Assembly: GCF_048403405.1 (NCBI RefSeq)
Contig: NZ_CP183129.1
Origin: Escherichia coli
GTDB lineage: Bacteria; Pseudomonadota; Gammaproteobacteria; Enterobacterales; Enterobacteriaceae
Strand: one strand, 5' to 3'
Length of the DNA: 64,000 nucleotides
The notes beneath the pieces were generated by a model. That model saw only the letters and a list, made by a program, of their open reading frames with translations, ran no database searches and was not told the origin of the DNA. The position numbers and the translations under genes were made by a program. Of this stretch, positions 10,090-42,865 are shown in pieces (positions within the stretch are counted from its first letter, which is position 1; every line of letters starts with the position of its first letter).

Positions 10090-11422
<1,333 letters not shown>

Positions 11423-11441
11423 AACTTAGTTCGTTTTAAAG

Positions 11442-11466
11442 ATTCTGCAGACACTGTCTGCAGAAT
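11442..11466. repeat. Perfect 25-bp palindrome centred between the convergent nanQ and yhcG stop codons
   Basis: ATTCTGCAGACA-C-TGTCTGCAGAAT; same core (CAGACA-N-TGTCTG with AATTC-type arms) as the three palindromes inside yhcG. Confidence 0.8.
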
Positions 11467-11481
11467 TCGAAACCGCTGAAA

Positions 11482-12609
11482 TTAACGGCGTCTATAGCCT
11501 TCCTCTAGCACCGCCTGTGTTCGAACGAGTTCATCCGCGAGTCGTTTTTCATCAGGTAGTTGCATCTTATATTCGCTCGCCAGAACGGTGTTAGGCAAAC
11601 CAGCCAGTGCATAATACGCTTCGCCGGCTCCTTTCTCTGCACAGAGAACCAGACCGATGGGCGGATTTTCATCCGGTAGTGTCCAGTGCTCTTTGGCGTA
11701 GTTGAGATACATATTCATCTGTCCGGCATCGCTATAGCTGAATTTGCCCACTTTTAGATCGACGATTAGCAGGCAGCGTAAACGGCGGTGGAAAAACAGC
11801 AGATCGACACGAAACCAGTTGTCATCAATGCGTAACCTTCGCTGTCGACCAACAAAGGCAAAATCATCCCCAAGTTCCAGCATGAAATCCATCAGGTGGT
11901 TGATCAGCGCCTCCTCAAAATCAGATTCTGAGTATTCATCTTTCAACTCCAGAAATTCGAGCACAAAGGGATCGCGTATCGCCTGTTGCGGAAGAATATG
12001 CATCTCGGCAGGAGCGTGTTGTTGCAGCATGGCTGATTTATCATGTGACAGTAGTGTTCGCTCATAAAATTGGGTCGCAATTTGCCGCTCTAGCTGGCGG
12101 ACAGACCAACCACAGCGGAGCGTTTCTTTTTCATAAAAGCTGCGGGCGTCAGCGTTTTTAACGGAAAGTAGACGGACGTAGGTGGACCAGGGCAGGGGGA
12201 AAGATTTGGCAGACAGCGTCTGCCAAATCTTTGCCGATGGGAATTCTGCAGACGGTGTCTGCGGCATTCCCAATGGTGTTAATTCGCCAGACACTGTCTG
12301 GCGAATTTCAACATGTTGAAAAAAGAGGTAAAAAAGCCTCATTTGGCGTAAGTTTTTTGCAGAGAACCCACGCTTATACCTTAGACTTAAATCCTTTGAT
12401 AGTCGCTTGATTAGCTGCGCACCATACGCAGCCCTGGCCTCGCCACCTTGTTCAAATTCGACAATTCGTCGGCCAATTTCCCAGTATGTCGCGGTCATCA
12501 GCGCGTTAACGCTACGTACCGTTTCCGTCCGGGCGCTATCGACCAGGTGAATAATACCGTCGTGGATTTGCTGGTAGCCTGTTGAGGTTCTCTCTGAGAG
12601 CGATTCCAT
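11482..12609 (-). CDS. yhcG: DUF1016 / PD-(D/E)xK nuclease-fold protein YhcG
   Basis: 375-aa ORF; C-terminal region ...FAFVGRQ...RVDLLFFHRRLRCLLIVDLKVGKF...ENPPIGLVLC resembles restriction-endonuclease-like fold of the YhcG family; convergent with nan operon. Confidence 0.85.
   Translation of the reverse strand: MESLSERTSTGYQQIHDGIIHLVDSARTETVRSVNALMTATYWEIGRRIVEFEQGGEARAAYGAQLIKRLSKDLSLRYKRGFSAKNLRQMRLFYLFFQHVEIRQTVSGELTPLGMPQTPSAEFPSAKIWQTLSAKSFPLPWSTYVRLLSVKNADARSFYEKETLRCGWSVRQLERQIATQFYERTLLSHDKSAMLQQHAPAEMHILPQQAIRDPFVLEFLELKDEYSESDFEEALINHLMDFMLELGDDFAFVGRQRRLRIDDNWFRVDLLFFHRRLRCLLIVDLKVGKFSYSDAGQMNMYLNYAKEHWTLPDENPPIGLVLCAEKGAGEAYYALAGLPNTVLASEYKMQLPDEKRLADELVRTQAVLEEGYRRR
12200..12307. 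repeat. Three tandem 39-bp units, each containing a 27-33 bp palindrome, in-frame inside yhcG
   Basis: Palindromes at 12200-12232 (perfect 15-bp arms), about 12241-12269 (imperfect) and 12281-12307 (perfect 13-bp arms); centres spaced exactly 39 bp; encode 13-aa units QTVSGELTPLGMP / QTPSAEFPSAKIW / QTLSAKSFPLPWS on the minus strand. Confidence 0.85.
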
Positions 12610-12792
12610 TATCTGTCCCTTTATATGGCGCTGTGTTGAATAATGGAATCAGCTATACGCCGGGCATCTGCCGGTAACAATCCAGATGTGCGTATTACAT
12701 TGGTTTTCTTCAGATTATGCGAGGCGCTTTCCAGTACGAAAGGAGAATTTCAGCGCCGACTCTTTTCTGAGGAGGCGGCGCTGGGACAGAGC

Positions 12793-14223
<1,431 letters not shown>

Positions 14224-17200
14224 TTACTGCGCCTGCACGCGCAACTCTGCTGCGCTACGACTACGGTGACCCAGCAGTGCTTTTACATCACTGGACTTCG
14301 GTTTAACCAGCGCAAATTTAGTGGCGAAGGTTGACCAGTTCGCCAGAATCTCTTCACCGCGCTGAGAACCGGTATGCTGAACATGCTCGGTGATAAGACC
14401 GCGCAGATGCTCTTCATGGATCGCCAGATCGTCAACGCTTAAGACCTCGACCAGTTCCGGGTTAACGCGTTTGCGGAAATCGCCGCTTTCATCGAGAACG
14501 TAAGCGAAGCCGCCGGTCATGCCCGCGCCGAAGTTAACGCCGGTTTTACCCAGAATACAGACAATACCGCCCGTCATATATTCACAGCCGTTGTCGCCAA
14601 TGCCTTCTACCACGGTGATAGCACCGGAGTTACGCACGCCGAAACGTTCACCCGCGCGGCCTGCGGCATACAGACGACCTCCGGTCGCGCCATACAGGCA
14701 GGTGTTGCCGATAATGCTTGCTTCATGGCTGCGGAAGGCTGAGCCAACCGGAGGACGAATGGCGATTAAGCCGCCCGCCATGCCTTTACCGACATAGTCG
14801 TTGGCATCACCGGTCAGGTACAGTTCCACGCCGCCCGCGTTCCACACACCGAAGCTCTGGCCTGCGGTGCCGTTGAAGTACGCTTTGATCGGATCGGCTG
14901 CCAGACCCTGATCGCCGTGCGTCTGGGCGATATAGCCTGAAAGCGACGCGCCGACAGAACGGTCGGTGTTGCGAATATCGAACCAGAAGGTTTTGCTCTG
15001 ACGCTCATCGACAAACGGTTTTGCCTGTTGCAGCAACTGTGCGTTCAGCAGGCCGTTATCAAACGGCGGGTTGTTTTCGGTACAGTAGAGCGCCTTACCT
15101 GGATGCGGCTCAGCGGTCTCCAGCAGTTTCGACAGCGCCAGTTTCTGCTGTTTGGCGGTGAAACCGTCCAGCTCTTTCAGCAGGTCGGTGCGACCAATCA
15201 GATCCACCAGACGCGTTACCCCCAGCTGTGCCATCAGCTCGCGGGTTTCACGGGCGATAAACTCAAAGTAATTAGTCACCTTGAACGGCAGGCCGTGATA
15301 GTGATTCTTACGCAGTTTGTCATCCTGAGTTGCTACACCCGTCGCGCAGTTGTTCAGGTGGCAAATACGCAGATATTTACAGCCGAGCGCCACCATCGGA
15401 CCGGTGCCGAAGCCGAAGCTTTCTGCGCCGAGAATCGCCGCTTTGATGATATCGACACCCGTTTTCAGGCCGCCATCGACCTGCAAACGAATTTTATGAC
15501 GCAAGCCGTTGGCAACCAGCGCCTGCTGGGTTTCCACCAGACCGAGTTCCCACGGACAGCCTGCGTATTTCACCGATGAAAGCGGGCTTGCGCCGGTGCC
15601 GCCGTCATAGCCTGCGATGGTGATTAAATCGGCATAAGCTTTCGCCACACCGGTCGCGATGGTGCCTACTCCCGGTTCGGACACCAGCTTCACGGAGATC
15701 ATCGCTTTCGGGTTAACCTGCTTGAGGTCGAAAATCAGCTGCGCTAAGTCCTCGATAGAGTAGATATCGTGGTGCGGCGGCGGGGAGATCAGCGTCACTC
15801 CGGGCACCGAATAGCGCAGTTTGGCGATGTAAGGCGTGACTTTATCGCCCGGTAACTGACCGCCTTCGCCCGGCTTCGCGCCCTGGGCGACTTTAATCTG
15901 AATGACGTCGGCATTGACCAGATACGCCGGAGTAACCCCAAAGCGACCAGAAGCCACCTGCTTGATGCGCGACACTTTGTTAGTGCCATAGCGCGCCGGA
16001 TCTTCGCCGCCTTCACCGGAGTTAGAGTTGCCGCCGATGCTGTTCATCGCTTCCGCCAGCGCCTCGTGGGCTTCCGGGCTTAACGCGCCGATAGACATCG
16101 CAGCGGTATCGAAGCGTTTAAACAGTTCGCTTGCCGGTTCAACATCCGCAATGTTGACCGCGTTTTCACCCGGCGTAATTGCCAGCAGATCGCGCAGCGT
16201 GGTTGCCGGACGCTCATTAACCAGCTTCGCGTATTCCTGATAGTCGCTGTACTCGCCGCTTTGTACCGCCTGTTGCAGCGTGCGCACCACGTCCGGGTTG
16301 TAGGCATGGTATTCGCCGCCGTGGACGTATTTCAGCAGGCCGCCCTGGCTGATGGGCTTACGCGCCAGCCAGGCACGTTTCGACAGATTCAGCAGATCCT
16401 GCTGGAAGTCTTCAAAGCTCGCCCCACCAATGCGACTGACCGCCCCCTGGAAGCACAGGCCCACGACATCATCGTGTAGACCGACCGCTTCAAACAGTTT
16501 CGAGCAGCGGTAAGAGGCGATGGTGGAAATGCCCATTTTGGACATGATTTTGTACAAGCCTTTGTTGATGCCGTTACGGTAGTTGAGCATCACGGTACGA
16601 TAATCTTTGGCAATCGCGTGGGTGTCTACCAGGCGGCCCAGCGTTTCATAGGCAAGGTACGGATAAATAGCCGTCGCACCGAAGCCCAGCAACACGGCGA
16701 AATGGTGCGGATCGCGGGCGCTGGCGGTTTCGACGATGATGTTGGCATCGCAACGCAAGCTTTGATCGACCAGACGGGTCTGGATCGCGCCAACCGCCAT
16801 CGGGGCTGGAACCGGCAGGCGATCTTTAGCGATATTCCTGTCGGAGAGCACCAGCAACACGGTGCCGCTACGTACCATTTTTTCAGCTTTGTCGCACAGC
16901 TCTTTGACCGTCGCTTCGAGCGTGGTTTTGGTGACGTCAAAGGTGATATCCAGTGTATCTGCGCGGTAGTGCTCCTCTTTCATCGTCGTGAGCTGTTTGA
17001 AATCGGAGTAGAGCAGAATCGGCGATTTAAAACTTAAACGGTGCGCCTGGCCCTCTGCTTCACAGAAGACGTTCATTTCACGACCAATGCTGGTGGCGAG
17101 CGACATAACATGCGCTTCACGCAGCGGGTCGATTGGCGGGTTAGTCACCTGGGCAAACTGCTGGCGGAAGTAGTCGTAAATAATGCGCGGCTGACTGGAG

Positions 17201-18684
17201 AGCACGGCGAATGGGGTGTCGTCGCCCATCGAACCGACCGCTTCCTGACCGTTTTCGCCCAGTACGCGAATTACGGAGTCCAGCTCTTCCGCGCTGTAGT
17301 TAAACTGTTTCTGGTAACTGGCAAGTGTGTCGTCGTCCAGTTCGCGGCTACCTACTTCTTCATCGGGCAGATCTTCAAACGGTACCAGTCGGCGGACGTT
17401 TTTCTCCATCCACTCTTTATATGGATGGCGGCTTTTCAGATCGTCATCGGTTTCTGCCGAGTGCAGAATACGCCCACTGCGGGTGTCGATAACCATCAGT
17501 TCGCCTGGCCCGACGCGGCCTTTTTCGACCACTTCGTCAGGCTGGTAATCCCAGATACCGACTTCAGAGGCGCAGGTGATGAGCTTATCTTTGGTGATGA
17601 CGTAGCGCGCCGGACGCAGACCGTTACGGTCGAGGTTACAGGCGGCAAAACGACCGTCAGACATCACGATGCCTGCCGGGCCATCCCACGGCTCCATATG
17701 CATGGAGTTAAAGTCAAAGAAGGCGCGCAGTTCCGGGTCCATATCCGGGTTGTTCTGCCAGGCAGGTGGGACTAATAGACGCATGGCACGGATGATATCC
17801 ATCCCGCCTGCCAGCAGGAGTTCCAGCATGTTATCCATCGAACTGGAGTCAGAGCCGGTTTCGTTGACGAACGGCGCGGCGTCGTGCAGGTCAGGGATCA
17901 GCGGCGTCTGGAATTTATAGGTACGCGCACGCGCCCATTGGCGGTTACCGGTGATGGTGTTGATTTCACCGTTATGCGCCAGGTAGCGGAACGGCTGCGC
18001 CAGCGGCCAGCGCGGTACGGTGTTAGTGGAGAAGCGCTGGTGGAACAGGCAAATGGCCGATTCCAGACGCAGGTCCGCAAGATCCAGATAAAAGCGCGGC
18101 AGATCCGCCGGCATACACAGACCTTTATAAATATTGACCAGATTCGACAGGCTACAGACGTAGAAGTCTTTGTCGGCTTCGAGACGCTTTTCAATGCGGC
18201 GGCGGGCGATAAACAGACGGCGCTCCATATCGCGCGGACGCCAGCCTGCCGGGGCGTTCACAAAAATTTGCTCAATGCGTGGCAGAGAGGAGAGGGCGAT
18301 TTCACCCAGCACGCCTTCGTTAGTGGGGACATCACGCCAGCCCACAATCGACAACGTTTCGCGTTGCAGCTCTTCTTCAACGATGCGGCGTGCGGCAGCA
18401 GCGAGTTCAGGATCTTTATTCAGGAAGAGCATCCCGACAGCGTAGTTTTTTGCTAAACGCCATCCGCGCTCCTGCGCAACGATGCGAAAAAAGCGATCCG
18501 GTTTTTGTAACAGCAAGCCGCAACCGTCACCGGTTTTACCATCGGCGAGAATCGCGCCACGGTGCTGCATGCGGGCCAGTGCGTGTATAGCAGTACGCAC
18601 TACCTTGTGGCTAGGTTCGCCTTCTATGTGGGCGATCAGGCCGAAACCACAGTTATCCCTCTCAAGGGATTTATCGTACAACAT
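14224..18684 (-). CDS. gltB: Glutamate synthase (NADPH) large subunit
   Basis: Long ORF with N-terminal amidotransferase Cys (…[12 protein letters not shown]), FMN and 3Fe-4S domains; start placed at [11 protein letters not shown] (1486 aa); the ORF track extends to 18792 through in-frame upstream codons. Confidence 0.95.
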
Positions 18685-19358
18685 ATCGTGAACCTCCCCC
18701 AGGCTCTGCGGGAACCCCACTTCCGAACCGCTGCGCACGGGCACAGAAAGAGCGTGGCGACGGGGTTTGCGTGTCATACGCGCGCCTCGCATTCGCCCCC
18801 TTGTTGTCCTTTTCGCATCGGTTAATACGGTGAAGAGGGGATCTCAATTACTGCATAAATATGATGAGCAGGCTGCTCATCCAGAAAGCTTCCAGCGGAT
18901 TTCCAACTTATCGGGAAAGCTGATACAGGTCAAATGGCAAGCTTATTGGTACAGAAATGTGCTTTAGCGCAAAATTCTTTATTAATTAGCTGAAATTAAA
19001 ATGGATTTTCTCTTTAAGGCTAAAAGGGGAGTCGTTAGAGAAACTGCCAATTCCTGACTGTCATAAAGGCGTGTTAACCCTTATCCTGCCTTGAACTGAC
19101 GAGAAAACCAGCATTTTATACTGCCTTAATTGTTAATGGCATTTTATGCTACTGTTTTTGCCTAAAATCTATAAGGAGATAAAAAAATCTGACACAAGAT
19201 AAGCAAAAATGATTTATGTGATCATGCATGAAATTTCGGTAATTTTGATTGATTATGCAGTTGATAAAAGCAGGCCGGGACGATTGATCCAGGTCATCGC
19301 CGAATTGAGCTAAAAATGGCAGGCTTTGGCCTCTTTTCAAGGCGCGGTCTATCAGATT
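18685..19358. promoter_or_regulatory. AT-rich divergent control region of gltBD and yhcC
   Basis: About 670 bp non-coding AT-rich spacer between divergently oriented gltB and yhcC; expected location of the gltB promoter; individual factor sites not resolved here. Confidence 0.5.
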
Positions 19359-42827: not shown

Positions 42828-42832
42828 TCAGC

Positions 42833-42865
42833 AAAACCCCGGCCATGCGCCGGGGTTTCTTTTTG
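42833..42865. terminator. Bidirectional terminator between convergent obgE and dacB
   Basis: aaaaccccggccatgcgccggggtttctttttg: GC stem flanked by A-run and T-run. Confidence 0.8.

Follow-up and report, generated by a model that had tools for sequence, protein, structure and literature searches.

In Escherichia coli K-12 MG1655, the genes gltD and yhcG are separated by the gltF-yhcADEF locus, and the question raised by the DNA analyzed here is how the two genes came to stand next to each other. The window, the whole analyzed stretch of 64,000 nucleotides from the E. coli contig NZ_CP183129.1 (assembly GCF_048403405.1), had previously been described in a sequence-only reading. That reading offered two explanations, a natural presence/absence polymorphism of a fimbrial islet and a scarless engineered deletion of an IS-bearing region. 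The region 12610-12792 is very probably the native ancestral gltD-yhcG intergenic region of Escherichia, with nothing deleted, in a natural human-associated lineage that never had the islet. The anatomy of the locus, the allele frequencies, the state in outgroups and the non-K-12 background of the window are all solidly established.

The gltB (14224-18792, from the list of open reading frames), gltD (12793-14211), and yhcG (11482-12609) genes are all located on the minus strand. The gltD gene encodes the 472-aa small subunit of glutamate synthase (TIGR01318, 897 bits; annotated in the identical genome TUM14771), and yhcG encodes a 375-aa protein with DUF1016_N and YhcG_C PD-(D/E)XK nuclease domains (Pfam; annotation in identical genomes). 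Downstream of yhcG, the N-acetylneuraminate anomerase gene nanQ, also known as yhcH (10958-11422; NF040884, 236 bits), lies on the plus strand and is convergent with yhcG. According to the list of open reading frames, the same is true of the other nan operon genes beyond nanQ. The start codon of yhcG at 12609 and the stop codon of gltD at 12793-12795, both on the minus strand, leave exactly 183 bp between the genes (12610-12792, minus strand), as had been read from the sequence and the list. The gltD-proximal hairpin noticed earlier is also present in this spacer, as CAGCGCCG/CGGCGCTG with arms at 12751-12758 and 12776-12783.

No trace of the fimbrial genes was found in the window. In tblastn searches of the whole window, GltF, YhcA, YhcD, and YhcF gave chance-level matches only, the best having E = 0.006 over 36 aa. 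Thus, the reported absence of open reading frames for GltF, a fimbrial usher or a chaperone extends to the complete 64 kb. In a blastn search with the 7.1-kb K-12 islet, the sole match in the window was a palindromic unit of 26-29 nt.

An alignment with MG1655, one of the checks proposed with the sequence-only reading, showed that the flanks are collinear and that the spacer is replaced by 7,084 bp in K-12. The gltB, gltD, yhcG, nanQ, and nanK genes have identical order and orientation in both genomes. The K-12 order given in that reading (gltD-gltF-yhcA-yhcD-yhcE::IS5-yhcF-yhcG) matches the annotation; the long gap is real, but its size was overestimated, since 7,210 bp, and not roughly 8 kb, separate the stop codon of gltD from the start of yhcG. 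On the gltD side, BLAST homology with K-12 stops 2 nt beyond the stop codon, at window position 12791. On the yhcG side, it restarts at window position 12732, 123 nt upstream of the yhcG ATG. Between these points, the window has 58 bp (12733-12790, minus strand) that include the hairpin, while K-12 has 7,084 bp comprising the islet (gltF, yhcA, yhcD, yhcE, and yhcF) and the IS5 copy in yhcE. Because these 58 bp have no K-12 counterpart, the two states differ by replacement and not by a clean deletion of K-12 DNA. A stable hairpin is found shortly past the gltD stop in both genomes, but the K-12 hairpin is another sequence, namely a copy of a palindromic unit of the type found in yhcG.

The gltF gene, long listed as a member of the gltBDF operon, is the gene with which a lineage-specific fimbrial islet begins. 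The gltF-yhcADEF genes form a low-G+C chaperone-usher fimbrial operon of the beta class, confined essentially to phylogroup A. In K-12, the islet measures 5.9 kb, or 7.1 kb when IS5 is counted, and has a G+C content of 43.1% versus 51.6% for the window.

Strains from which this region was removed on purpose do exist, so that the window could in principle belong to a reduced-genome or fimbria-less K-12 derivative with a scarless deletion of the IS5-bearing region. Thus, gltF-yhcADEF was deleted from MG1655 by CRISPR-Cas9 in strains WQM002 and WQM026 (PMC8174762), and in strain DGF-298 a 9.8-kb segment reaching from gltF to nanE is missing (PMC10652928). The published endpoints, which the sequence-only reading had suggested comparing, proved incompatible with the window in both cases. 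Neither the WQM002 junction sequence nor either of its halves occurs in the window, and the window has yhcG, nanQ, nanK, and nanE, which the DGF-298 deletion would have removed. No FRT, loxP or I-SceI site was found in the window, which agrees with the earlier statement on FRT and loxP and extends it to I-SceI. The background of the window is also not that of K-12. The window is collinear with K-12 positions 3,309,256-3,380,434 at 97.7-98.5% identity over 64 kb, and the identity next to the junction is 91-95%. In contrast, 25 kb of the window are 100% identical to six natural human isolates of clinical or faecal origin (TUM14771, GN02461, 4621, MS 69-1, TUM1226, and OX030728). Together with the 58 bp of non-K-12 sequence at the junction, these identities refute the proposal of an engineered deletion, the probability of which is close to nil. 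An assembly artefact, in which a collapse or misjoin dropped the islet, is even less probable: the identical junction was found in thousands of independently finished genomes as well as in other species, and the islet is non-repetitive apart from IS5.

The distribution of the short spacer was analyzed in 5,426 complete E. coli genomes. This set is non-random, with many K-12 laboratory strains and clinical clones, and the shares given here are therefore approximate. In total, four allele classes were found, backed by a sampling spread over the ranking of the matches. Allele A, the window type, consists of gltD, the 183-bp spacer, full-length yhcG, and nanQ; as a contiguous 2.9-kb stretch, it was found in 2,543 genomes (47%). 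Allele B has the identical spacer followed by a truncated yhcG, as in BL21 and O104:H4, and accounts for about 596 genomes (3,139 - 2,543; about 11%). In allele C, represented by SaT040 and SK1144, gltD is followed by a palindrome and nanQ, and yhcG is lost (946 genomes, 17%). Allele D is the K-12 type with the islet; it was found in 1,120 genomes at ≥80% coverage and in at most 1,293 genomes if any match is counted (21-24%). Of the 1,293 carrier genomes, 1,288 have an islet with ≥99% identity to that of K-12.

The 131-bp gltD-yhcG junction shared by alleles A and B is present in 3,139 of the 5,426 genomes (58%). Carriers of the window-type junction include O157:H7, O103:H2, O111:H8, the uropathogenic strain F11, and PCN033. 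In E. coli outside phylogroup A (O157:H7 F8092B, O103:H2 FWSEC0007, F11, PCN033, MS 69-1, and TUM14771), gene order, spacer length, and hairpin are identical to those of the window; the differences are point substitutions only, and the 2.9-kb junction stretch is 96.6-100% identical. Allele B retains the 183-bp spacer with its hairpin and differs in yhcG, which is cut at the palindromic unit at 12204 and followed by ~470 bp of unrelated DNA. Allele C, which was also found in Escherichia sp. MOD1-EC7003, differs from the window in having neither the hairpin spacer nor yhcG, and it has a K-12-type palindrome after gltD. Adjacency of gltD and yhcG is thus the majority arrangement, and the K-12 arrangement is a derived minority. 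The sequence-only reading had named a common gltD-yhcG adjacency together with a wrong K-12 order as grounds for abandoning its claim; the adjacency is indeed common, yet the order was correct. What did not hold was its use of K-12 as the reference state, given the short junction in 58% of genomes and in outgroups. Since yhcG comes directly after gltD in most E. coli, MG1655 should not be taken as the ancestral reference for this locus.

Outgroups were scanned with one genome per species, using a degenerate pattern for the 3' end of gltD followed by analysis of the downstream DNA; the scan did not pick up E. fergusonii or Salmonella. The gltD stop, the CAGCGCCG...CGGCGCTG hairpin, and then yhcG were found in E. 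albertii, E. whittamii, Escherichia sp. E1V33, the divergent 'E. coli' strains E69 and SCPM-O-B-8794, and Pseudocitrobacter vendiensis. GltF, YhcA, and YhcD were found downstream of gltD in none of the 20 enterobacterial loci (0/20). As sister Escherichia lineages and P. vendiensis share the hairpin spacer with yhcG behind it, the short arrangement is the ancestral one. Of the two original explanations, the natural presence/absence polymorphism of a fimbrial islet is therefore the one borne out, by allele counts and outgroups alike.

Polarity could also be reversed, with the K-12 arrangement being ancestral and the islet deleted in the lineage of the window and in most other E. coli. Deletions are indeed known at the gltD-nanQ locus, including those of allele C and E. 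albertii and IS1-mediated ones, and the gltD-proximal 43 nt of allele C are common to K-12. A deletion cannot, however, create the 58 bp of the short allele, which include the conserved hairpin and are absent from K-12. Four further Escherichia species or lineages, and also Pseudocitrobacter, carry the spacer of the short allele, while the islet was found at none of the outgroup loci. Additionally, the islet is low in G+C and nearly clonal across its carriers, and the closest relatives of K-12, BL21 and O103:H2, hold the hairpin spacer on near-identical flanks. Loss of the islet from most of the species is thus highly unlikely, and the hairpin spacer of the window is regarded here as the original state. 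Allele C bears on the former range of the islet. Should this allele, whose first ~43 nt past gltD are common to K-12, descend from a carrier of the islet, the islet had a wider distribution in the past than it has today, for example in B2 lineages.

Some of the scanned loci show other states. A Pseudocitrobacter metagenome-assembled genome (locus L014, nt 1-210 past gltD) has one half of the gltD hairpin and one palindromic unit and lacks yhcG, and Citrobacter amalonaticus (locus L019) has yhcG fragments. Both loci are decayed versions of the gltD-yhcG locus. In Kluyvera, Citrobacter, and Enterobacter species, gltD is directly convergent with nanQ, and the occurrence of yhcG is therefore sporadic at the family level. 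The left end of the islet resembles the Pseudocitrobacter metagenome-assembled genome (78% over 69 nt). Shared ancestry was considered for this match, but the match is uninformative in this respect because the ~45 nt after the palindrome resemble a generic REP/BIME-type flank, which is also present between dacB and obgE in K-12.

The sequences around the islet suggest how it may have arrived. The yhcG-proximal 123 bp of the spacer (12610-12732, minus strand) are common to all alleles that retain yhcG, but the K-12 copy is just ~72-80% identical to that of the window. Compared with O103:H2, K-12 shows only 72% identity in the 106 nt preceding yhcG and 9 differences in the first ~128 nt of the gene, versus ~1.5% divergence in the remaining part of yhcG. 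On the other side, K-12 gltD is 98.6-99.7% identical to the genes of O103:H2 (allele A) and BL21 (allele B). The allele-linked divergence is thus limited to the first ~130 nt of yhcG and the 106 nt that precede this gene. The islet would have entered an ancestor of phylogroup A, replacing 58 bp of the spacer together with the hairpin, and would have carried along a deeply diverged yhcG upstream region of its own. The left junction would then lie directly after gltD, and the right-hand crossover probably fell within the 5' end of yhcG.

The sporadic occurrence of the yhc locus in phylogroup A is already known from published surveys. This beta-fimbrial locus was reported in phylogroup A strains only (PMC5216030), and E. 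coli W, B, and Crooks lack it (PMC3032704). It was also described as 'sporadic' and 'highly under-represented', and the choice between an ancient remnant and a recent acquisition was left undecided (PMC3559732). The gains over this literature are modest. The sequence data from outgroups favour acquisition of Yhc, the question left by Wurpel et al. (2013), and the yhcG promoters of K-12 can be attributed to islet-derived DNA.

The latter point follows from mapped transcription starts. In K-12, transcription of yhcG starts at 3367641 and 3367673 (PMC7967276, supplement). Both positions are upstream of 3367703, where the homology between K-12 and the window begins, and thus fall within islet-specific DNA that is absent from the window. 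Consequently, the islet gave K-12 new yhcG promoters. The sequence-only reading had proposed that the transcriptional context of yhcG was altered in the window; a difference in context does exist, but its direction is the reverse, the islet having supplied the yhcG promoters of K-12. As the mapped K-12 promoters sit in islet-derived DNA, the regulation of yhcG in most E. coli cannot be extrapolated from K-12. No sigma-70 consensus promoter was called on the yhcG (minus) strand of the spacer in a promoter scan. In the ancestral allele, yhcG may be expressed either through gltBD read-through or from a promoter of its own. An antisense RNA, G0-10703, starts in K-12 at 3367770, 57 nt upstream of the yhcG ATG (PMC7967276, supplement). 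This start falls in the conserved shared region and corresponds to a plus-strand position near 12666 in the window. A G0-10703-like transcript of the window allele would cross the hairpin and continue antisense to the 3' end of gltD.

The hairpin itself is a conserved GC-rich stem-loop (12751-12783, minus strand) that starts 9 nt past the gltD stop codon (TAA). It consists of an 8-bp stem CAGCGCCG/CGGCGCTG with 7 G-C pairs, an inner 3-bp stem, and a loop region of 17 nt, which shrinks to 9 nt if the inner stem forms. The RNA fold has a free energy of -19 to -23 kcal/mol, with a z-score of only -1.76. The stem pairs in all nine aligned taxa (9/9). The changes in it are one double change from C-G to U-A (E69 versus E. 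whittamii) and one G-U pair that fits the gltD sense strand only. As the sequences are nearly invariant, with 7 of the 9 pairs never varying, the covariation is not significant, and 168 of 500 shuffles do equally well. No match to Rfam was found in the region 11300-13000 at E ≤ 1.

A GC-rich stem straight after the stop codon of the last gene is a feature of intrinsic terminators, and the stem-loop has it. The other features, a short loop and an immediate U-run, are missing, as the tail is AAAUUCUCCUUUCG and the loop region has 17 nt. With no canonical U-tract and a loop too long for the scan, the stem-loop was not called in a terminator scan. All alleles keep some stable hairpin 9-15 nt past the gltD stop, K-12 and allele C using a palindromic unit for it. 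Because every allele retains such a structure, the stem-loop may form the 3'-end hairpin of the gltBD mRNA, either as a terminator or as a stabilizer and exonuclease barrier, with the odds of this role being about even. In that role, it would end or protect the gltBD transcript. The rest of the spacer, ~123 bp, is the yhcG leader.

Palindromic units of the type used by K-12 and allele C after gltD were also found within and behind yhcG. Three in-frame units with a 39-nt period are located inside yhcG (12204-12228, 12243-12267, and 12282-12306, minus strand; found by repeat finder, pattern search, and translation). A fourth (11442-11466; repeat finder and pattern search) is located in the convergent intergenic region between nanQ and yhcG. 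The unit is 25 nt long (ATTCnnCAGACnnTGTCTGnnGAAT), and its pattern gave 8 strand-matches in the window, with 0 expected. The units inside yhcG encode the peptides KIWQTLSAK, MPQTPSAE, and EIRQTVSGE, which are of the xIxQTxSxx type. Because the units are palindromic, both strands encode similar peptides, and tblastn gives a reverse-strand self-match. The yhcG gene of P. vendiensis carries the units too. In K-12, one unit lies directly after gltD (locus L001, 1633-1657), and the same was found in B2-type alleles.

Breakpoints of several rearrangements at this locus are located inside the units. In E. albertii, a hybrid unit composed of an internal left arm and a nanQ-proximal right arm is found ~520-560 nt downstream of gltD (locus L008); yhcG is gone beyond about codon 122, and its 3' two-thirds are deleted. 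In allele C (SaT040, locus L004, 3936-4002), a K-12-type gltD-proximal unit is joined to the nanQ-proximal flank, and this single unit connects gltD with nanQ. The unit at 11442-11466 was the recombination partner in both the E. albertii and allele C deletions. In BL21, yhcG is cut exactly at the equivalent of 12204, and the remainder is replaced by ~470 bp of unrelated DNA (locus L030, 1030-1525). In BL21-Gold(DE3), the replacement DNA contains a 101-aa open reading frame annotated as 'transposase' (WP_000639208.1; locus L030, 1105-1410, minus strand), for which no Pfam or NCBIfam match was found.

The YhcG protein of the window is 97% identical to that of K-12. It matches PF17761 (DUF1016_N) at E = 1.1e-41, PF06250 (YhcG_C) at E = 5.3e-56, and the PADLOC candidate anti-phage defence family PDC-S02 at E = 1.9e-135. 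Judged from these matches, YhcG qualifies as a predicted member of the DUF1016 family of PD-(D/E)XK nucleases and of the candidate defence family PDC-S02. Many strains have lost yhcG or carry a broken copy: the gene is truncated in ~11% and absent in ~17% of complete E. coli genomes. In addition, SCPM-O-B-8794 has a premature stop at codon 43, and the E. albertii gene is truncated.

Because independent rearrangements break within the units and YhcG matches PDC-S02, the gltD-nanQ interval is regarded as a small variable hotspot. Most of the rearrangement in it can be put down to repeat-mediated deletion. A further role of the units, as an active recombinogenic or mobile element and perhaps as a recognition site of the YhcG nuclease, is rather unlikely, and any activity beyond ordinary repeat-mediated deletion is purely speculative. 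If active, the units would drive the truncation of yhcG in E. albertii and its loss in 946 genomes, and likewise the BL21 replacement and the left islet junction in K-12.

The gltD gene is unusually polymorphic among E. coli lineages. In its 3' half, the identity among the window, O157, O103/K-12, F11, and SaT040 is 94-97% (window 12501-16000, covering gltD and the 3' part of gltB); for comparison, the distal half of the window is ~98.7% identical to K-12. This divergence tracks lineage and not allele type. Linked divergence around the spacer was considered as a sign of an old balanced haplotype, and this idea was dropped, as gltD is similarly polymorphic in all lineages whatever allele they carry.

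Only one other structural difference from K-12 was found in the 64 kb. In the dacB-obgE spacer (window 42831-42836), the window is missing a REP/BIME-type element of 152 bp that is present in K-12 (3330427-3330578).
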